Source: Octopus sinensis | Lineage: Eukaryota | Reading direction: 5' to 3' | Length of the DNA stretch: 64,000 nucleotides | Assembly: GCF_006345805.1 (NCBI RefSeq) | Contig: NC_043000.1 | Span: forward strand, 9,734,001-9,798,000 | Part shown: positions 2,877 through 61,064 of the stretch, in pieces | Layout: every line of letters begins with the position of its first letter | How positions within the stretch are numbered: the stretch's first letter is position 1 | Position numbers and translations under genes: made by a program | Notes under the pieces: generated by a model | Seen by the model: only the letters and a program-made list of their open reading frames with translations | What the model was told of the DNA's origin: nothing | Database searches by the model: none

Positions 2877-3283
2877 AAGGCGGCGAGCTGGCAGAAACGT
2901 TAGCACGCTTGGCGAAATCCTTAGCAGTATTTCGTCTGCCGTTACCTTCTGAGTTCAAATTCCGCCGAGGTCGACTTTGCCTTTCATCCTTTCGGGATCG
3001 ATTAAATAAGTACCTGTTACGCACTGGAGTCGATATAATCGTCTTAATCCGTTTGTCTGTCCTTGTTTGTCTCCTCTGTGTTTATCCCCTTGTGGGTAAT
3101 AAAAAAATAGGCATTTCGTCTGCCACTACGTTCTGAGTTCAAGTTCCGGCGAAGTCGACTTTGTCTTTCATCCTTTCAGGGTCAATAAATTAAGTACCAG
3201 TTATGTACTGGGGTCGATGTAATCGACTTAATGTCCTTGTTTGTCCTCTCTATGTTTAGCCCCTTGTGGGCAATAAAAAAATA
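2877..3283 (+). mobile_element. SINE family N (tRNA-like head, Nin/Deu-like core, LINE-like tail), dimer
   Basis: Head GGCGGCGAGCTGGCAGAAACG with B box GAGTTCAAATTC, core GCCTTTCATCCTTTCGGGGTCGATAAATTAAGTACC, tail TTTAGCCCCTTGTGGG..ATAAA. The second unit restarts at GGCATTTCGTC. Probable 15-bp TSD ATAATGATA(T/G)TGTTT at 2861-2875 and 3284-3298. Confidence 0.85.
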
Positions 3284-6130: not shown

Positions 6131-7473
6131 AGGGGAAGAGAGAAAAAAAAGAAAGTTTAGAAGATAATAAACATGGCTAAGATTTGTTTGGAAGAAGACG
6201 GATAAAGGTTAAAGGAAGAATGAAATATGGTCAGGATATTTTATCAGAGATTGTAGAGAGATATAAGAGGGGGAGTGTAAAGTGGTGGGAGAATAAAAGA
6301 ACGGATTGGGAGATTCCGAACGAAGCAAATGTCAGGAAGCTAAGGCGTGGTTGATAGGAATAGTCGTATTCGAGTTGCATGCGGAGGTTATCAATGTGAG
6401 TATCGGCAAAGTTTATAAATATCTGGAGTGAACATAAAATGACTGACCATCAGTATTTGAAAGAATGAAGTAGTATAATTTTTAGAAGAATATTTCTCTG
6501 AACATTTATTAAAATGTGGAATCCAGTTTTAGGGACTATATTCGTTCTTTGGTGCTGGTCTTAATACAGTGGTCGGTTTAACACCGCGGGCTAGTTCTTG
6601 GGTGATTTTAACGCAGTTCACTCTAACAAGTATTCGGGCTATTTCTCAATCCAAGGACAACTTCTTTCCTTCCTTTCAGAGATCCTGAAAAGAGACTGGA
6701 TCTGTTCTTTCTTTCTGACGCCTATCCTTCAATTTCCCTGAAAGTGATCTCCACTATCTTAGAAACGGAAAGATATTGGATATTTCACTGTTAAAACAAT
6801 ACACTACTAAATGGATTGGATTGCTTGTCAAACCGGGATTGTCGCCCCCGTTTCTATTTTATTTCACTGCTTTCTTACATCAACTGAAAAAAGGCACACT
6901 CAAAGTTATAATTAATTTATGATTAAGGAATCTATAATTTTATGATTATATGTATTACTGAGTAAGTCTATCATGTAGCAACATTTAAAATTTATCTAGC
7001 AACATGGCCCTTTTGCCTATTTTATCAACCCACCAAACCACCTTTGTTCTCTGTCCTCCTTCGTTTCGGGATGACCAAGTTTTCAGGGTTTAGTTGGATT
7101 AAGTAATTTTGTGTAAGTTATGCAGAGATTGCATAGGAATATTTGATTTTAGCACCTAAGTGATCACCTAATTTGTCTAGGGCTTAGCGCCGCGTCTGGT
7201 TCAACCAGCAATCCAACTTTGACTATACCCTCGCTTTAGTGGTTTATTGATTTACATTGGAAATCCAATGTCTTTTCGCGGTGCACATTTCTATTTTCAA
7301 GATTTCTGAAAGGAAGGAACTTGCCCTCAGGTAGAGACCAAATACTAATCACAGAGGGAACTCTGTGTACGGCATCTAAGGGCCATTTAAACTAAGCAAA
7401 GTATTAAGGCTGCTACCCGAGAACAGAAGCAATCCCTCAAGCGAGATCCGTACATTTTATATATCAACCAGAT

Positions 7474-7707
7474 AAGGGCAGCGATCTGGCAGAAACGTTA
7501 GCACGCCGGGCAAAATGCGTAGCCGTATTTCGTCTGCCGTTACGTTCTGAGATCAAATTCCGCCGAGGTCGACTTTGCCTTTCGTCCTTTCGTGGTCGAT
7601 AAATTAAATACCAGTTACGCACTGGGGTCGATATAATCGACTTAATCCGTTTGTCTGTCCTTGTTTGTCCTCTCTGTGTTTAGCCCCTTGTGGGTAGTAA
7701 AGAAATA
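7474..7707 (+). mobile_element. SINE family N monomer flanked by an about 100-bp direct duplication
   Basis: Full head, core and tail. The flanks 7371-7473 and 7708-7819 share AGCAAAGTATTAAGGCT.CTACCCGAGA.CAGAAGCAATCCCTCAA.CGAGATCCGTACATTTTATA.ATCAACCAGAT. Confidence 0.85.
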
Positions 7708-9017
7708 GGTATCTAATGGCCTGTTAGCGGTATTAAACCGAGCAAAGTATTAAGGCTACTACCCGAGAGCAGAAGCAATCCCTCAAACGAGATCCGTACA
7801 TTTTATACATCAACCAGATTTCACTCACAAGGCTTTGATCGACCCGTGGCTGTAACAGAAGTCATATTCTTGGGGTGTCGCGTATAATGACACCTGCTCG
7901 GTGTACACAAGGGGTCGCACGGGAAATGAAATTGCACCAAAAGAAGTTAACAGTAAGAATTAGTATCTACTTTATTTAATGACAATATTAAGAGACAATT
8001 TTTTCCAAAAAACCTGAAAAAGATTATCCCAGGTTTCATGTGCAAAGTTGAACTTATGATCCACTAAAAAAGAAAATAAAAATCCTGAATTTGCGCTGTT
8101 GAAATTGGGCTGCTACTAATATGTCAATACAACTATTGTGTCATGAAATACGATACTTTCCACTAGATCAATGCTATAAAAATAAATGAATTTCATTCAT
8201 GTGCTAATTAATTCGTATGAGTTGTCTCCCATGCTCTACACACACTAAAACTATTAGCACGGTCGAGAAATGTCTCGCTAACTCCAAAATTAACATTATT
8301 TATTTACATATTCATGAGTATTTAATTGATATTAATTACATTGAAGTAAAAAGAAAAAAATTCCTTCACTTTAATGGGACAAATAATAAACATTGACCAG
8401 AATATTTACCCTCACGATTCCGATATTTTATTTAAAATAGATTTTGCGATCTGCTTTCTTTTATAGCATCACATTGCTTTATCGTCAATACAACAAAAAG
8501 ATTTTGCATCTTGTCAATATATAACTAAGTTTATAAATATTTGATCTTCCCACGTAAGCATTTTAATGTAAATTTATCACTCTTTCTTAGCTTACAGATG
8601 TCTATAACGAAATGTCTTATTTACACAGGACAGCGGAACTAGTATCAAGGCTAAAGAAAATACACGTAACTTGTGTCTTTAGTTTACAAGTTAATATTTC
8701 AGTTGATTTGTCATCGATGTCAGTTTTCCAAGTAAAGACACATAGAAACACACGTGCACACACACACAAGAATTTGGACCTAGAGATCTCCATTTCCAGC
8801 GACTTCGAGGGTCACCTCCGAGTGGTGTCAGGCGTCAACGAAGGGCCCTCGACTACAACAAGACAACCAAAGTTTTTTTTTTCCCAAGGTCTGGGGGTCT
8901 CCCGCCCCTAAGCCCTAGACCATCACCTAATCACCCTTACCCATCTTGTTGCTTAACAACATCAACAACGTACACACGAACACACAAACATACATGCACA
9001 CGTTTATACACGCACAT

Positions 9018-11228: not shown

Positions 11229-11229
<1 letters not shown>

Positions 11230-11233
11230 GTCT

Positions 11234-11538
11234 AGTTTTGTCTAGCGAATGTTTTAAAAAAAGATGGGTGAATGTAGCAAGAATGGCACGTATGAATGAC
11301 GAAGCCACCTTGAGCATAGTCCTATGAACCCAGAAATCGAAAACAGAGAGTTGCTTATTTGCAAAAAAAAAAAAAAAAAAAAAGAAATATAAAATGTGAC
11401 TTCATTGACCGAGGTTACCGTGGTCTTTTCCGTAGGCTTTTCTTTCCACGGGTAAACCTCACCTGTCCTCCCCTTTACACTTCATATTGACATTTCTGTG
11501 ATAACGATCCCTATTGATCAATTTTTTTTTCCTCTCCC

Positions 11539-11571
<33 letters not shown>

Positions 11572-11630
11572 CCCCTTTTTTTGTCCTCTTTCTCTCCTTT
11601 TACGATCCCTTTTGATCGAAACCCCCCTTT

Positions 11631-11670
<40 letters not shown>

Positions 11671-11740
11671 CTTCAAAAGAAAAGCTCTACCTTGTAATTT
11701 GTTCTATCTGTGTGCAGCCCTGTGTGGCTAATAAAGAAAC
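11234..11740 (+). mobile_element. 5'-truncated Tx1/L1-like LINE 3' end inserted in (ATCT)n
   Basis: Encodes [30 protein letters not shown], then a 3' UTR ending CAGCCCTGTGTGGCTAATAAAGAAAC. Near-identical to 20424-21052 but with a different 5' truncation point. The clade call rests on resemblance of the ORF2 C-terminus. Confidence 0.7.
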
Positions 11741-11965
<225 letters not shown>

Positions 11966-12769: not shown

Positions 12770-13380
12770 AAGGCGGCGAGCTGGCAGAAACATTAGCACG
12801 CCGGGCGAAATGCTAAGCGGTATTTTGTCTGCCGTTACGTTCTGAGTTCAAATTCCACCGAGGTCGACTTTGCCTTTCATCCTTTCGGGGTCGATTAAAT
12901 AAGTACCAGTTACGCACTGGGGTCGATATAATCGACTTAATCCGTTTGTCAGTCCTTGTTTGTCCTCTGTATTTAGCCCCTTGTGGGTAGTAAAGAAATA
13001 GGTATTTCCTCTTCTTTACGTTCTGAGTTCAAAATCCACCGAGGTCGACTTTGCCTTTCATCCTTTCTGGGTCGATAAATTAAGTACCAGTTGCGTACTG
13101 GGGTAGATCTAATTGACTGGCCTCCTCTCCAAAAATTTCGGACCTTGTGCCTAGAGTAGAAAAAAATATTTGCAAATATGAAGGCGGCGAGCTGGCAGAA
13201 TCGTTTGAACGCCCGGCAAAATGCTTAGTGGCATTTCGCACGTCTTCAGGTTCAAATTCCGACTTTGCCTTCCACCCCTTCGGGTTCAATGAAATAAATA
13301 CCAGTTGAACACTGGGATCGTTGTAATTGACTTAGCACCTCTCCCGAAATTACTGATCTTGTGCCAAAAATTCGAAACCA
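12770..13380 (+). mobile_element. SINE family N dimer (about 12770-13165) plus adjacent monomer (about 13181-13380)
   Basis: The first unit ends AAAGAAATA and joins GGTATTTCC. The second unit and the next monomer end in an alternative tail (CCTCTCC..AAATT...CTTGTGCC.A.A.T.GAAA). Confidence 0.85.
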
Positions 13381-15614
13381 TTATTACCAATAGCAGTAAG
13401 AAATCCAAATCTAGTAGCTAGCATGCTATTAATGTAGCTACAAAATATAGCTACTGATGCAAAAATAGACGACAGAAGATAGAGGAGAAATTTTAAAAGT
13501 CATGAAGAGAATTTTCTCGCCAACTCAAAATGTAGATTAATAAATCATGGAAAAATTAAGTTAAGTAGAGCCAGTAAAAGTAGTTTAAATTTCCATCGTT
13601 TTCAGCATTAAACAAATCTATTCTTTTCTAATTTGTAATAATAATTTATCATTTATTAACTGATTCTCTAACATAGATAAATGACTGAAATTTTATAGTT
13701 TTATAGAGTAGAGTTCTTCGCGTATGTAACTAAATTCATTTAATCTAAAGTCTTTATAATTCAGTGGAGGTTATAATATTCCAATTAGTGATTTCGAAAT
13801 TATTGTTATGCACATATCTTTGATACTTACGATAATTATTTTTTTTGACAGTTAATCGCAATGGCCAGAAATTGTTAATAATTAACTGTAATGGCCAGAA
13901 ATTGTTTTGCACAATGGGTCAGAAGTGTACGAGTTGGTAAGATCGTATAAATTAGACATACTTCGGAAGAATTTCCGATCTACAGACTTTGGTCTTTACT
14001 CTGATGGTGCAGATTCATTTTGTGAAGTATAAATGGCCACAGAAAGGATGCTATATGGGAGAAATTTATTAATATATTCAGAAGATTAGATAAAATTATT
14101 GCAGTAGATACGAATATCAGCATATTTAATTTTTTCATATAAATTAGGATTTAGATACTGGTAAATGCTGCCACTATAGTGAACACAAGTGTAAACTGCA
14201 GTACATCAATATATATTCTAATCAACCCACAGTGTTCCTAAAACCTTCATTAGTAACATAAGTAAGCATATTTTCAACAGATCTTCTGATAACTATTCCT
14301 GTAGCAATGATATTCATTATTTCATTGAAAGACAGTAACTTCAAAAATACAGAATAAGGAAAAATATATGTTTACGTAGAAACCGGAGACGAAATTGTAG
14401 TGTGATGGAGGAAGAAGACAACAGAAAAAAGAAGCAAACGGGAGAAAGAAATACAAAGACCTTACCTGTTGACCTGGGTGGGATGAGCGATCACTGTCAA
14501 GAAATAAACACGTCCTTGCACGCTGCTGTCTCTTCTCGAACTGCCCGCACGTGCTTCGTGTCCACGCATGCCCCGTGGCTGTTCTACAGGCCCCTGCAGT
14601 CTTCACTTCCGTCTACCTCATCTGCAATCCTCTCCACCAACATCACATAGCTCATCACAGCCCATAACACCACTAACACCACAGAAATATTGTATAGTAT
14701 AATGCACTTGTAGTTCAAATGATAGTTCTTATGTTGCAATCTTATACGTAAGCATTTCTGGTAGCTTATTGATCTTTAATAGAAATAACAGTCAAAGGAA
14801 TTATAGTTTTACCAAAATCTTCATTGCGACCGTTGCTAGTATGAAAAGAATCCGTTTCTGTATAAACACACATAACTTTCCTTCTATATGTAACTAGAAC
14901 ATTCTTAGTATCTTCTTTATCGGGTTAAGATCTCCTTTGTACATAAAAATGAAGTAAAAAAAAGTTATTTACGGCCTATTGAAAATCCTTTTAAAAGAGT
15001 CTCGCAAAGCATCTATATGTTCTAACACCCAGAAAAAGTACTGACACAGCTCAGTATACAAATACGTATGGAGCTAAAAGATTATAACATCAATAATTAT
15101 GAGACCAATTAATATATTGGAGAACATGTGTTCCTATTGTTAACTGCGCCAGAAAGTATTATCTTTGACTCTCGGTCAAATATAGCATTTTACTACAATC
15201 ACTTGCAGTTTAATAATTGCACAGACACACACACACACGCACATCATGTATGTTTGTGTGTATGTGTATGCATGTTATATATACATATATGTTGTATATA
15301 TGTTTATATATGTATACGGATATATACTTTTTGTGCGCGTATAAGCACACACACCCACCCATTCACACACACGCGCGCACATGCACACACATGCACACGT
15401 GCTTGTGTATATTCACACATATACATACTTATATGGTGACAGTCGACTCGTAATCAAACAAGACCACATCCGAAACACTGACGATGTCTCATTTGGTTTT
15501 CAAGGCTTGCAAGGGGACTTATGAATCATTCCACGCCGACTACAAGTCAGCTCTGCGGCAGCAGCCCGACCGTCTAGATGCCGAACAAACCCACTGTCCG
15601 ACCCACACGTTCTC

Positions 15615-20423: not shown

Positions 20424-20948
20424 TTCCAATCAAGCATAAGGCGAAAGAATGTATCTGGTGGAGCGTCTGAAAGGATTGGAGACAAACACTTTCCTCTCTG
20501 GTCAATCTCTCATCAACTTCTTCAAGTACCACTTGAAAAGGAAAGTGAGAGTAGAGAGGAAAGTTTTGTCTAGCGAATGTTTTAAAAAAAGATGGGTGAA
20601 TGTAGCAAGAATGGCACGTATGAATGACGAAGCCACCTTGAGCATAGTCCTATGAACCCAGAAATCGAAACAGGGAGTTGCTTATTGCAAAAAAAAAAAA
20701 AAAAAGAAAAAAGAAATAATAAAATGTGACTTCATTGACCGAGGTTACCGTGGTCTTTTCCGTAGGCTTTTCTTTCCACGGGTAAACCTCACCGTCCTCC
20801 CTTTACACTTCATATTGACATTTCTGTGATAACGATCCCTATTGATCAATTTTTTTTTTTTTTTTTTTTTTCCTCTCCCCCTTTTTTAACCCCCCTTTTT
20901 TTGTCCTCTTTCTCTCCTTTTACGATCCCTTTTGATCGAAACTCCCCT

Positions 20949-20983
<35 letters not shown>

Positions 20984-21052
20984 CTCAAAAGAAAAGCTCT
21001 ACCTTGTAATTTGTTCTATCTGTGTGCAGCCCTGTGTGGCTAATAAAGAAAC
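20424..21052 (+). mobile_element. 5'-truncated Tx1/L1-like LINE 3' end inserted in (ATCT)n
   Basis: Reads [70 protein letters not shown] (stop 20653-20655). AK..IW..R is typical of the L1/Tx1 ORF2 end. The 3' end is the same as in the 11234 copy, and (ATCT)n lies on both sides. Confidence 0.72.
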
Positions 21053-24640
<3,588 letters not shown>

Positions 24641-35541: not shown

Positions 35542-35944
35542 AACGTGGTGATAAGTAAACGCTTCTTAATTCGTGTTTGTGGGTCACTTTCTCTAGGTGC
35601 TGCATAGACTCTTCTCTTCTTTTATTCTTGTAGGATACCAGGGAGGATATGACTCGGGAGGTGGTTAGAATTGCGGTTTTAGGTTATATAAGATATAACT
35701 CAGACATTCATGGGAAAATATTTAAGATGATATGGATGATAATAGTTTCCACCACCTTAAAGAAGCTGGATATTAAAAAAAACAAGATTTAGTAGAATTA
35801 ATGCGATTACATTTTATTAGGGATGCATATTTTCACATTTAGTGGTATCAGTTCAAATTTATTGAAAGGAATATTTATGGGGACACGGCTAATAAATTCA
35901 AGATTACACTAAGATATCGAAGACAAAAATATACTGAGTATATT

Positions 35945-36340
35945 GGTTTCAAATCTTGGTACAAGGCCAGCAATTTCGGGGGAAGAATACGTCAATTACA
36001 ACGACCCCGGTCCTCTGGTGGTACGTGTCTTATCGACGCCGAAAGGATGAAAGGCAAAGTCGACCTTGGCGGAATTTGAACTCAGATCATAGAGGCGGAC
36101 GAAATACCTATTTCTTTACTACCCACAAGTGGCTAAACACAGAGGGGACAAACAAGGACAGACAAACAGATTAAGTCGATTATATCGACCCCAGTGCGTA
36201 ACCGATACTTATTTAATCGACCCCGAAACGATGAAAGGCAAAGTCGACCTCGGCGGAATTTGAACTCAGAACGTAATGGTAACCGAAATACCACTAAGCA
36301 TGTTGCCCGGCATGCTAACGACTCTGCCAGTTTGCTGCCT
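35945..36340 (-). mobile_element. SINE family N dimer
   Basis: The minus-strand junction at about 36109 reads AAAGAAATA|GGTATTTCGTC. Confidence 0.85.
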
Positions 36341-37169
36341 TATTCTGAGTAACAATATTGAAGTTTAGTAACTGGAGATGCGTCATAGTTTCATACACAA
36401 TGAACGGTTAAGATTAGATTAAAGCAGAGTCAAGAAGATTTTTGTATACTTAAAATTTTTTTGCAAAGACTGCACTAAAATCCGACATCAATTTCCGCTG
36501 GAGAACTGTTTACATAACTATTTGTCATGAAGAGAAGCAGTGAGAGAATTTATAAATATTGGAGAAAATAGGAATGCATGAATAAAAATCGCTTGTTTTC
36601 AACGATGGAGATGAAACCCCATAGATATCAGAGATCTCCTGTAGACAGTGTATATGCTTATGCAACAAACCAAAAGATATACAATTAAATTTGCAAATAT
36701 ATTTCCAATTGTTACGTTCCATTGATTTCATCTCGATTTTAGCTCCAAAATAGAGTGCTTGAAGATCGGTTCGACATATACAGTTGCGATTCTTTTGAAA
36801 AGTTATTTTAGATCTTGTAATATCTCCCTATTTCTCGCTGTATTTCCAACAACGGTTTTTTATCGGAGATTTTAATGAAGGCTGGCTTTCAGAATTGAAA
36901 TTGCCTAAAGTTTGTACAGTAACAATTTTTTGTCTTAATACATGGTTTTAGTTTTTGGCATGAGGACAACAAATTTAGTATGTGTGGGTATGTGGATTAC
37001 ATCACCCCCAGTGTTCAAATGTACTTTATTTTACCGTTACCGAAGGGATCAAAGGTAAAGTCGACCTCAGGGGAATCTGAACTCAGAACGCAAAGAGCCA
37101 GAAGAAATACCCATACAGTTAACAATTCTCCCTGCTCACCACCTTTTTTATATTTTAACTATTCATCTC

Positions 37170-37814: not shown

Positions 37815-38630
<816 letters not shown>

Positions 38631-39091
38631 TAGAGCCGGAAATCGAACTAACGACCTTACGATCTTGAGCCGAATATCTTAGCCACTAAACCACGCGCCT
38701 TTAGCTCGACCAGAAAATTGCCTATAGCCAACTCCTATTTGCTTGGATTTCATCTCCCTTCCTTCAATGTTAAATTTTAGACATCTGGTCCAGTCTGAGC
38801 TGTAATTGTCTGTATATATGATACGCCTTTTTGACATATTCTTATCGACTATACAATACGTAATGGATACATGTATTATTTTATGTTTTGAATTTTATTT
38901 GCTTCAGTCATTGGACAGCAGCCATACTAGGGCACTACCTTGAAGGGTTTAGTTAAAAAGATTAACCCCAGTGCTTATTTTTAAGTCTGGTACTTATTCT
39001 ATCGATTTTTGCGGAACCGCTAAGTTACAGTGAGGTAATCAAACCAACAGCCGATGTCAAGCGTCGGTGTCGACACAATGGAACAAGCAGT

Positions 39092-53940: not shown

Positions 53941-55129
53941 TGAACGTGCACGCACAGATATACTTCCAGGCTTACGTGCGTTCGCGACTATTTACACACA
54001 CAAACGCACGCAATACACTCATACACAAACATTTCCGCGAACAGTTCGATGCAATCTGCACAAACTTTTGGAAATTTCTGTTCAGTACTCCTCCTCCTCC
54101 GTTACTCATAAATGGAAAGAAAAATCATTTTCTTCTTCGCAATGACGCTCTCTCGTTCTCAGTGATCATCATTATGGCTTCCGTGAAGCCAGACATGTCT
54201 AGCGGCGACTTGCTGTCATATTTCACGTGGGAGTAACTTGACACTTAGACAAATTGCTCTTGAGATTAGTAAAGTCTTAAACTGTGCCTGGTACGAGAAT
54301 CTTCTATTAAAACCTCACCCTTTCACACTGCCTGAGCTTCTTATCATATTCTCATTTTTCATTATTTTCTAACTTTGTCATTTTTCATTTATACCTTTTC
54401 GTTTCTCCATCGCTAATTGCTAATTTCTCAGTTGTCACTATCTTCTACCTGTTCCTTCCTCCTCTCATTCCTCCCTTCATTCCTCCTATCACGTTCATAA
54501 GTGCCCTAACTCATAACCACACTAACTTCTCTTAACGTCTTTTTGCTTAGTGTCTCCCGTTTTCTTTCTGACAATACACTCTACTCCCCCCTTTCACCTT
54601 CCCAACCTCTCCTGTTAACGGCGTAACACTACTGTCTCTGTACTGAGAATCTTCTGTCTAAGTTCGACTATGACCAACATCTCACTTACGTCCTTCGCTC
54701 CCGGTGGAGCACATGCTATCAATGACCTCACCCCTCTGTCCTCGAATCTGGGCTGTATGTTTCCCTGAGAGACGGCCTTCCTCTGCCAGATGTTGATTTC
54801 GAATCTTCATCGATGCTTCTGCAAATTTGCTTTTTTAAAGGTAGGAGTGTTAATCATATGCAAACCCATTTTAACATCTGGGAAGAGGTGATCCGTATTA
54901 GTCTAACCTCTATATTTTAACCTTTCCAGCATGGACGGTCTTATCAGAAGCTTGCACTCCACTGACATTGCTCTCTGGTTTATGGAGGCACACAAAGCAT
55001 CACACCGCAACAAAAACAGGACTTTGTGGTGGTATGACCAACAAGCTTCCCTAATTTTTTTTATTTGACCGGGAGATTTCTACCAATCACTTTTATTCGA
55101 GTGTGAACTGAAAGGGGTTCTGTCATACC

Positions 55130-55362
55130 TATTTTTTTACTACCCACAAGGGGCTAAACACAGAGGGGACAAACAAGGACAGACAAACGGATTAAGTCGA
55201 TTATATCGACCCCAGTGCTCAACTGGTACTTATTTTATCGACCCCGAAAGGATGAAAGGCAAAGTCGACCTCGACGGAATTTGAACTCAGAAGGTAGCGG
55301 CAGACGGAATACGGCGACGCATTTCGCCCGGCGTGCTAACGTTTCTGCCAGCTCGCCGCCTT
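55130..55362 (-). mobile_element. SINE family N monomer with 15-bp TSD
   Basis: GGGTTCTGTCATACC at 55115-55129 and 55365-55379 (GGTATGACAGAACCC on the element strand). Confidence 0.9.
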
Positions 55363-55989
55363 TAGGGTTCTGTCATACCACCACTCCAATAACTCTGGCG
55401 AGCGCTAAAATGCCTGTCATCTCCCACTAACTCTGTTACGTTCATTAATAATGTACCCGTTGCAATTCATTCTTTTCAGAACAAATTAATCTTCGCTTCA
55501 CACGCAATGCGCATGCAGTCTAGATACTTCAGACAACTTACGATCTTCTTTCACGAAGAGAGACATGGATATAACCATCTCCAATGGGGATATAAGAATC
55601 AACATTCTTTCGTCAATGCTCTCACACATACATAACATCACTGAAACTAAATCGCAAGCAAATAATTAATTTGAAACCGATATTTTGACTCCAAACTATA
55701 ATCTTTAATAACTTAATCAGAAGAAAGGCGACTCTTCTGTAACAGAAAATATTTCAGACCCACGCAGTTGCAAAGTGTATGCACATACTCGATCACACGC
55801 AGATGAATATCCAAATATCTTAAACCGTAGCCGAAAGAAAGTAATTTAACTGGAGTGGAATGGCACCGAGTCATTCACGAACATACTATAACTCATGCTT
55901 TACAGCCTCGTTGTGATTTATTGTGCTGTCTTCTCATAATACGACATTCACTTCTTTTCACTGTTTATAAGTACATATCTAGTGTCATT

Positions 55990-56718
55990 GAAGGGAGTGG
56001 GTAAATCAATTACATTGACCACCCTACTAGTGTTCAACTGGGCGGTACTTATTTTATCGACCCCAAACGGATGAAAGGCAAAATCAACCTCGGTGGAATT
56101 TGAACTCAGAACATAAAGACGGACAAAATACCTATTTCTTTACTAACCACAAGGGACTAAACATAGAGAGGACAAACAAGGACAGACAAACGGATTAAGT
56201 CGATTATATCGACCCAAGTGCGTAACTGGTACTTATTTAATCGACCCCGAAAGGATGAAAGGCAAAGTCGACCTCGGCGGAATTTGAACTCAGAACATAA
56301 AGACGGACAAAATACCTATTTCTTTACTACCCACAAGGGGCTAAACATAGAGAGGACAAACAAGGACAGACAAACGGATTAAGTCGATTATATCGACCCC
56401 AGTGCGTAACTGGTACTTATTTAATCAACCCCGAAAGGATGAAAGGCAAAGTCGACCTCGGCGGAATTTGAACTCAGAACGTAGCAGCAGACGGAATATC
56501 TATTTCTTTACTACACACAAGGGGACAAACAAGGACAGACAAACGGATTAAGTCAATTACATCGACCCCAGTGCGTAACTGGTACTTAATTTATCGACCC
56601 CGAAAGGATGAAAGGCAAAGTCGACCTCGGCGGAATTTGAACTCAGAACGTAACGGCGTACGAAATACCGCTGAGCATTTCACTCGGCGTGCTAACGATT
56701 CTGCCAGCTCACCGCCTT
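55990..56718 (-). mobile_element. SINE family N tandem tetramer (period about 184 bp)
   Basis: One head at about 56660-56718, with three internal junctions of the type AAAGAAATA|G(G/A)TATT near 56131, 56315 and 56500. Confidence 0.88.
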
Positions 56719-59849: not shown

Positions 59850-61058
59850 AGCGCGCTGGACAAGATGCTTAACGGCATTTCTTTCAGCGTTACGTTCCGT
59901 GTTCAAATTACGCCGACGTCGACTTTGTATTTTCATTATTTCAGTGTCGATAAAGTAAGTGCCAGTTGAGTACTGGGGTGAATGTAATCGACTTAGCCCC
60001 TCCCCCGAAATTGCTGGCCTTGTGCCAAAATTTGAAACTGAGGAGGCGGCGAGCTGGTAGAATAGTTAGCGTACCGGACAAGATGCTTAGCGGCATTTCT
60101 TTCAGTATTACGTTCCGAGTTCAAGTTACGCCGACGTCGCCTTTGCATTTTCATCCTTCCGGGATCGATAAAAGAACCAGTTGAGCACTGGCATCAGTGT
60201 AATTGGCTAGCCCTTTCCTCCTAAAGAATAGTAATTCAATTGTTCAACACTTGAGCAGAACAATATAAAAATATATTACATCAAGTATACAAATGAAATC
60301 AGGTCAGAACATATATGTATCATGTTAGTACATATCAATGCAGGAATTGCTCCCTTTGTAAGTATGTGGTTTCCAATTCAGGCCCACTGCGCGAACTCTT
60401 GGGTATAGTTCTGGCCGACCTTGTACCTGGGCCCTTGGCCCTCATCACCGCCCAACAACCAGTGTTGGTTATTTACATCTCCTTAACTTAGAGGTTCGGT
60501 AAAAATAAACCGATAGAATAAGAACTTGACTGAAAAAATAAATGATGAAAGGTAAAGTTGACCTTGGCGGAATTTGAACTCAGAACGCAAAGACAGACGA
60601 AATACTGCTAAGCATTTCGCCCGGCTTGCTAACGTTTCTGCCAGCTCGCCGCCTTATAATCTTTTCTACTCTAGGTACAAGGTCCGAAATTTCTGGGGAA
60701 GGGGCCAGTCGATTAGATCGACCTCAATACGCAACATGTACTTAATTTATCAACCCCGAAAGGATGAAAGGCAAAGTCGACCTCGGCGGAATTTGAACTC
60801 AGAAGGTAGCGGCAAACGAAATACCTATTTGTTTACTACCCACAAGGGGCTAAACACAGAGAGGACAAACAAAGACGACAAACGGATTAAGTCGATTATA
60901 TCGACCCAGTGCGTAACTGGTACTTATTTAATCGACCCGAAAGGATAAAAGTGTAAGGCAAGTCGACCTCGGCGGAATTGAACTCAGAACGTAGCGGCAG
61001 ATGAAATACCGCTAAGCATTTCGCCCGGCGTGCTAACGGTTCTGTCAGCTCACCGCCT
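59850..61058. mobile_element. SINE cluster: two plus-strand N copies (about 59850-60220), a B fragment (about 60345-60530), and minus-strand N copies including a dimer (about 60545-61058)
   Basis: Head, core and tail motifs as above. Junction AAACAAATA|GGTATTTCG near 60826. Confidence 0.8.
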
Positions 61059-61064
61059 TAATTG

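Follow-up and report, generated by a model that had tools for sequence, protein, structure and literature searches.

The window analysed here is a stretch of 64,000 nucleotides of the Octopus sinensis genome (C4:9734001-9798000). On its minus strand, at 55990-56718, a short repeat termed SINE N forms a tetramer with a 184-bp period, in which a single unit with a head is followed by two young units and an old one, all three headless. An earlier note on this DNA had described such arrays in the same way, as one complete head with headless 184-bp units, often ending in an older alternative tail. The question raised by this locus is how such an array is built. In the reading that we hold with good confidence, SINE copies are nicked at position 50 by the enzyme of a Tx1-type LINE, and new SINE RNA is reverse-transcribed there. 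The features of the window are collected in Table 1.

Table 1. SINE N units, joints and related LINE copies in the window
Feature	Positions	Strand	Description
Dimer, position-50 joint	2877..3283	+	a single 16-bp duplication starting ATAATGAT encloses the whole dimer
Monomer	7475..7707	+	about 100-bp duplication, 7371-7473 and 7708-7819
Tx1-like LINE, sister family, 5′-truncated	11229..11741	+	inside a (TATC)n run; tail homologous to SINE tail
Dimer, N unit and old-tail (O1) unit, position-50 joint	12770..13165	+	end approximate
(TATC)n-landing Tx1-like LINE, second copy	20425..21053	+	
Dimer, N unit and old-tail unit, position-50 joint	35915..36341	-	end approximate
Dimer of second class, position-17 joint (AGAAAC)	38216..38633	+	217-bp period
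Monomer, unique site	55130..55362	-	15-bp duplication GGTATGACAGAACCC at 55115-55129 and 55365-55379
Array unit 4	55990..56132	-	headless remainder of older SINE copy, decayed alternative tail
Array unit 3	56133..56316	-	headless, 184 bp, N tail
Array unit 2	56317..56500	-	headless, 184 bp, N tail, begins GATAT at consensus position 50
Array unit 1	56501..56718	-	sole complete head (positions 1-49 = 56670-56718) ahead of the body; 15-bp deletion in the N tail
B-box-like GTTCAAATTC	56633..56642	-	consensus 77-86; recurs in each array unit
A-box-like TGGCAGAA	56699..56706	-	consensus 13-20, unit 1 only; motif match, putative
Dimer, N unit and old-tail (O1) unit, position-50 joint	60660..61059	-	end approximate

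The consensus of SINE N is 233 bp long and its tail ends AAAGAAATA. Motif matches predict an A-box-like sequence at consensus 13-20 and a B-box-like sequence at 77-86, and GGTAT at position 50 falls between the two. The exact 24-mer tail is found 54,934 times in the whole 2.72-Gb genome, the reversed-pattern control not once. With this copy number and a length of 233 bp, SINE N has the size and abundance of a SINE2 (100-600 bp, dispersed, high copy, without ORF-sized length) and is a candidate tRNA-derived SINE with a putative A/B-box head. An Rfam search with the SINE gave no match at E ≤ 10, and folds of the tail and head were not better than those of shuffled sequences (head fold z = −1.19). 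The octopus tRNA-derived SINEs OK, OR1 and OR2 (Ohshima and Okada 1994), of which OR1 and OR2 are CORE-SINEs, are presumably of the same taxon and kind.

The window holds 14 matches to the SINE tail with at most 3 mismatches, against 0.01 expected; two of them are tails of a different LINE. All 12 junctions named in the earlier note read as claimed, within 1-2 bases. At nine of these the tail is followed by GGTAT or a one-base variant, seven times at position 50 of a SINE head (3110, 13001, 36108, 56132, 56316, 56500 and 60825) and twice in unique DNA. The junctions at 15614 and 38441, formerly taken as exceptions that made GGTAT a mere preference, are instead both of an AGAA class joined at SINE position 17. 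The motif belongs to the target, as had been claimed: upstream copies of the duplications start with it (at 7708 the upstream copy begins GGCAT, its start being imperfect), and the proposed check for empty sites is borne out by contigs of run X19 that lack the SINE and have a single target copy. Thus the monomer at 55130-55362 is missing from one X19 contig, where the duplicated flank is single-copy. Long target duplications are rare around SINE monomers; one of about 100 bp is that at 7475..7707 and another, of about 250 bp, is at locus L361.

Units 3 and 4 of the tetramer have four private bases in common (positions 57, 61, 65 and 69) and none later. In unit 3 these lie within the first 20 bp (56297-56316), which is likely a target duplication, and the restriction of sharing to these positions indicates that unit 3 likely inserted into the old unit 4, the likely original target. 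An outer target duplication around the tetramer was looked for and none was found. Contigs of four runs break within the tetramer. At 13181 and 60655 another SINE head directly follows an old-tail dimer, as if the upstream duplication of an earlier copy had been reused as a target.

Across the genome, the exact tail runs on into GGTAT in 29,173 of 54,934 cases; the base after that is A, C or G in 3,257, hence tail plus GGTATT is present 25,916 times. TATA followed by C, G or T comes after 6,003 tails and CGTATT after 225. From fetched loci 480 distinct tails were collected, 187 of them from loci unselected for the downstream base (the beginning of chromosome C1, a block of C4 surrounding the window, and loci retrieved for two further LINEs). 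Among these 187 junctions, 91 run into SINE sequence, 78 at position 50 and five at position 17, and 96 run into other DNA, a few diverged in-SINE joins below the score cut-off being counted as unique flanks. The unique flanks read TATAT in 25, GGTA in 14, GGTAT in 7 and AGAAA in 5. GGTAT is enriched 91-fold over local background at unique sites, but it is not the general preference that had been proposed: alone it is too weak, with 7 of 96 unique flanks against 25 for TATAT. In one 264-kb block GGTAT plus A, C or G occurs at about 886 per Mb and SINE position 50 at about 220 per Mb; when scaled up, a rough estimate is that a tail is present at about 0.14% of the former sites and at 3-4% of the latter. 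Five bases therefore do not explain self-targeting, the gap per site being 20- to 30-fold on this rough scale, and more than five bases are probably recognised at position 50.

Among 140 full-head copies in unique DNA, target duplications of 12-24 bp were called in 90, flanks made of simple repeats being left aside; they begin at the base right after the tail end. No strong preference upstream of the nick was found in these calls beyond few G at −1 (5/90). The dinucleotide that follows the tail falls into discrete groups (GG 24, TA 37 and AG 19 versus GA 5, TG 1 and AA 2; p = 8e-14). The landing classes GG, TA and AGAA are separate, and each is tied to SINE sub-lineages. GG- and TA-landing copies have the same tail and the same age (3.1% vs 3.4%; p = 0.89), yet differ at body columns 127, 130, 131 and 143 (p from 2e-5 to 2e-7). 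Bodies inserted at position 50 match the GG-landing lineages and differ from the TA-landing ones. AGAA-landing copies match position-17 units and have a tail variant of their own at columns 221 and 223.

The two truncated LINEs of the window sit in (TATC)n and have a tail related to the SINE tail. Longer copies of this family encode RT and zf-RVT, and nearly all of 30 loci (L121-L150) show the (TATC)n landing; the flank duplication of the copy at 11229 is apparently longer than 100 bp. Sister families were found by translated search of fetched loci, and one member (L014) lands in the SINE. All 30 best hits for this LINE and all 30 pattern-selected loci, seven of which overlap the best-hit set, have it at SINE position 50; in each set one locus carries an additional short duplication where LINE and SINE meet. 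Genome-wide, 138 of its 156 exact tails are at position 50, where Kojima's definition of target specificity asks for more than 20% of flanks in one repeat. All 20 full-length copies fetched, 5.3-5.4 kb long, show the order SINE 1-65, LINE, SINE 50-end. Similarity among them is 99.85% at the LINE ends and 88.6% in the SINE on either side, a difference indicating that the SINE copies were pre-existing targets. None of these 20 LINEs (L181-L200) is truncated, and in several the 1134-aa ORF2 is unbroken; 5′ truncation thus seems rare in this family, among top hits chosen by identity.

ORF2, 1134 aa from stop to stop, contains Exo_endo_phos (APE), RVT_1 and zf-RVT domains, and ORF1 a CCHC knuckle. 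The closest solved structure to the LINE protein is human L1 ORF2p (E = 2e-64). Among 48 homologues the sole clade-named one is 'Transposon TX1 149 kDa protein' (E = 2e-90); the LINE is here called Tx1-like, as a putative member of that clade. The tail of SINE N has 36-39 of 50 bases in common with those of three Tx1-like LINE families (scores 50-60 against a shuffled maximum of 26). The suggested link with the Tx1 clade is supported: the SINE base in question is also the landing site of a Tx1-like LINE whose tail is related. Older LINE copies, 83-93% identical to the young LINE over matched pieces, are at position 50 in six of six cases. The lineage thus reaches back far enough to have been present during the SINE burst, and we infer that it supplied the enzyme for the SINE. 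The exact young subfamily is a candidate mobiliser only, as three properties differ. Its youngest copies are 0.4% apart and the SINE burst about 3.4%; its tail ends AAATT and that of the SINE AAATA; and it uses CGTAT heads in more than half of 100 listed junctions, whereas the SINE is at CGTATT 225 times against 25,916 for GGTATT, about what point mutation would give. A young CGTAGCC head had been considered as escaping targeting; for the LINE this is ruled out, the head being present in more than half of the listed junctions. A search for a LINE with a tail closer to that of the SINE gave only three copies of the same family.

In 14 of the 20 full-length copies the upstream and downstream 16-mers are not identical; the differences partly follow lineage, and three related copies have the same change in common. 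From these changes the LINE RNA likely carries target-like sequence at its 5′ end. LINE distance and position-50 allele showed no overall structure (p = 0.71), and the groups defined by shared LINE variants were uniform for the allele in 6 of 6. Loci L155, L164 and L217 have a private deletion and substitution in common in the first 27 bases of the downstream SINE, and the outer flanks of the two that were checked differ; the shared changes may be 3′ sequence carried by LINE RNA. A third young Tx1-like family (L116:5986-6500 (-); L251-L280), with copies 99-100% identical, lands mostly at ACATGGAGGAAA in another repeat, where the main landing motif was also read as ACATGGAGGAAAGCACC. A further diverged Tx1-like 3′ end at L231:1000-1850 has a different tail, followed by ATT repeats.

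Among 139 unselected SINE elements there are 77 monomers, 47 dimers, 8 trimers and 4 tetramers; arrays of 5, 8 and 10 units occur once each. The dimers to tetramers described earlier are thus present and longer arrays as well. The suggestion that each insertion regenerates a promoter-bearing unit fails, for there is one head per array, often that of the old target, and the added units are without an A box. Each array keeps one A box and B box and no promoter is gained. An older head or tail directly upstream was flagged in 7 of 100 first units, the other 93 being without a duplicated head, and the 5′ join is thus usually seamless. The young G45 head allele is present in 24 of 96 first units and in 30 of 65 GG monomers (p = 0.007), frequencies from which about half of the heads would come from the new copy and about half from the target. 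An earlier contrast of head types (7/46 vs 34/58, p = 7e-6) was inflated by the TA lineage and is set aside.

The colonisation of older copies in place is supported, young bodies lying between heads and terminal units that are old. Old-tail terminal units are 9-13% diverged from the N consensus and the preceding units 3-5%; for O1 targets (n = 24) the figures are 9.4% for the terminal and 3.6% for the upstream units. The O1 terminal units are about as far from the O1 consensus as O1 monomers (9.3% vs 11.8%, 29 vs 16 copies, p = 0.30). Heads of old-tail dimers are 10.3% diverged, those of GG monomers 5.6% (p = 0.0005) and those of N-N dimers 5.8%. GGTAT is read in 23 of 29 colonised O1 copies and in 6 of 16 free ones (p = 0.009). 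Arrays mostly grew in place.

Local tandem duplication of one SINE by slippage or unequal crossover, with chance microhomology at the bounds, we regard as a very improbable account of the arrays. It is favoured by 49 of 197 adjacent pairs, mostly in long arrays, that have at least two private bases in common beyond position 80 and are likely local duplicates, and by identical units in some long arrays. However, 148 of the 197 pairs are without such sharing, so the test by which local duplication was to refute the proposal goes against it for the smaller part of the pairs only. In these 148 pairs private bases are shared at 16-20% at positions 52-80 (shuffled 3-5%) and at about 5% beyond, the latter figure being itself lowered by splitting off the 49. 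Young bodies are found on old targets of other subfamilies, the LINE uses the same base, and the 91-fold enrichment of GGTAT extends to unique sites; all three speak against duplication as the source. Tandem duplication explains array lengthening, not origin, and is refuted as a general origin. Some of the 49 duplicate-like pairs could stem from the rare long target duplications. In the 5-10-unit arrays at L079 (C1:8970108-8971807), L375, L237 and L239 the internal units are near-identical, towards minisatellites. Loci L045 and L047 (C1:21698419 and 22579250) have identical SINE arrays and flanks 0.9 Mb apart, which is a segmental duplication or an assembly duplicate. It is also improbable, though less so, that a few master loci gave rise to dimers and arrays by read-through transcription and movement of the whole unit. 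A single duplication often encloses an entire array, but this is equally expected from the original insertion. The units of N-N pairs are close in age (3.1% vs 3.6%), and TTTT lies within 10 bases at only 22 of 208 junctions, hence read-through is possible and Pol III termination at the junction was rejected. On the other side, the divergence of old-tail terminal units is the same as that of free old copies, the heads they carry are old, and the targets are of several tail types (137 N, 24 O1, 7 O2 and 29 other).

A different alternative concerns the choice of site. Several Tx1 enzymes, specific for position 50, position 17 and TA repeats, may each have mobilised a separate set of SINE lineages, extra RNA bases playing no part; we give this a substantial chance, somewhat below even. 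Three tail-related Tx1-like families have three targets, (TATC)n, SINE position 50 and the motif in the other repeat, the tail variant of the AGAA class is its own, and according to Kojima (2015, PMC4494074) target choice is set mainly by the endonuclease. Against it, the GG and TA lineages have different bodies in spite of equal tail and age, and no LINE on (TA)n or position 17 was present among the fetched loci. The first downstream base also counts against it. The two copies of the duplication mismatch at +1 in 10 of 67 GG and TA cases versus 23 of 737 at +2 to +12 (p = 1.6e-4); five of the 90 duplication calls were dropped for more than 2 mismatches in the first five bases, and many loci were selected on downstream bases, where the direction of change is not independent. 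An overwritten first downstream base hints at priming by an RNA tag. At L038, with A upstream and G downstream, the X19 contig without the SINE realigns from +2, not +1, which fits a G added with the insertion, in one case and with nine letters between not displayed. We give about equal weight for and against the idea that the SINE RNA overruns its tail by a few bases of the parent flank, that this tag pairs with the nicked target, and that a lineage so keeps its landing class. Read-through pairing in R1Bm is said to be a precedent; a literature search gave nothing relevant on it.

Sequence comparison favours, short of proof, a specific nick supplemented by pairing of the RNA with its target. 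For the arrays, the preferred course would be that a Tx1-type LINE enzyme cuts position 50 of an existing SINE copy, new SINE RNA is reverse-transcribed into it, and the 5′ part of the new copy pairs with the matching head of the target, likely leaving one head. Such a homology-based 5′ join would be like that proposed for R2. Each event would add one 184-bp headless unit, and a minority of units in long arrays would arise by later local duplication. More tentatively, and with doubts that slightly outweigh our support, the system may be a closed loop in which the LINE targets its own parasite SINE and landing choice is inherited, outside the enzyme, through landing-site bases of the RNA. If so, one self-insertion would found a lineage homing to SINE heads (GGTAT at 50, AGAAAC at 17), a copy in a TA repeat would found a TA-landing lineage, half of the SINE output would rewrite old copies and spare new DNA, and LINE landing would split the A and B boxes of the SINE.

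This is a natural system in which tens of thousands of events unite a SINE, its likely LINE partner and a target. The shares of endonuclease and RNA-target pairing can be tested here because SINE lineages that are alike in tail and age differ in where they land. Insertion is a route from SINE to tandem array, and dating of SINEs in this genome is biased since many copies are chimeras of old head and young body. The LINE, apparently an intact and recently active APE element with about 90% site fidelity, could be useful for targeted-insertion work.

A literature search found no SINE-targeting Tx1 in octopus, with Repbase, Dfam, subscription papers and supplements outside its scope, and the available text of PMC4758252, PMC5786205, PMC3747384, PMC4824008 and PMC5804259 describes no SINE self-targeting system. 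An octopus repeat annotation reports active L1-Tx1 and mostly unclassified SINEs (PMC13282606). Alu has a self-insertion hotspot at position 133 with 15,759 sense events (Levy, Schwartz and Ast, PMC2836564). The likeness lies in sense insertion at one base of own copies, partly explained by RNA-to-target pairing. Alu is poly(A)-based and uses L1, whereas the octopus SINE is without poly(A), some 40-50% of its junctions are of this type, and insertion of the LINE, too, is restricted to this site. The Alu events are reportedly a small share of all Alu. At the 5′ junction of R2 the cDNA pairs with the upstream target (PMC6895275), and a target-homologous RNA 5′ end giving a precise join is again similar; on the octopus side this likeness is seen in the 14 of 20 LINE copies with an upstream 16-mer unlike the downstream one. 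R2 has a restriction-like endonuclease and inserts in rDNA; in octopus the LINE is of the APE type and the SINE is dispersed. Squamate SINE-derived satellites are tandem SINE portions at many loci, homogenised when long (PMC10702118), and are in this respect like the octopus arrays. They are attributed mainly to unequal recombination, while the octopus unit boundary is a retrotransposon landing site. Closest are the crocodilian Tx1-Mar LINEs and SINEU, which have a preferred site in an abundant repeat common to both; 90% of SINEU-3 are flanked by Mariner-N4, and tandem SINE insertions arise (PMC4494074). Both systems pair a Tx1 LINE with a SINE at one preferred site in an abundant repeat. In the crocodilian tandems whole units are joined with a duplication between them, whereas the octopus joins are seamless and the units headless, and the octopus SINE, unlike SINEU, shares a LINE-type tail. 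Thus the type of system, a target-specific Tx1 with a passenger SINE, is known; the target of Tx1-Mar and SINEU is a third element, and what is new in octopus is that the target is the SINE itself.
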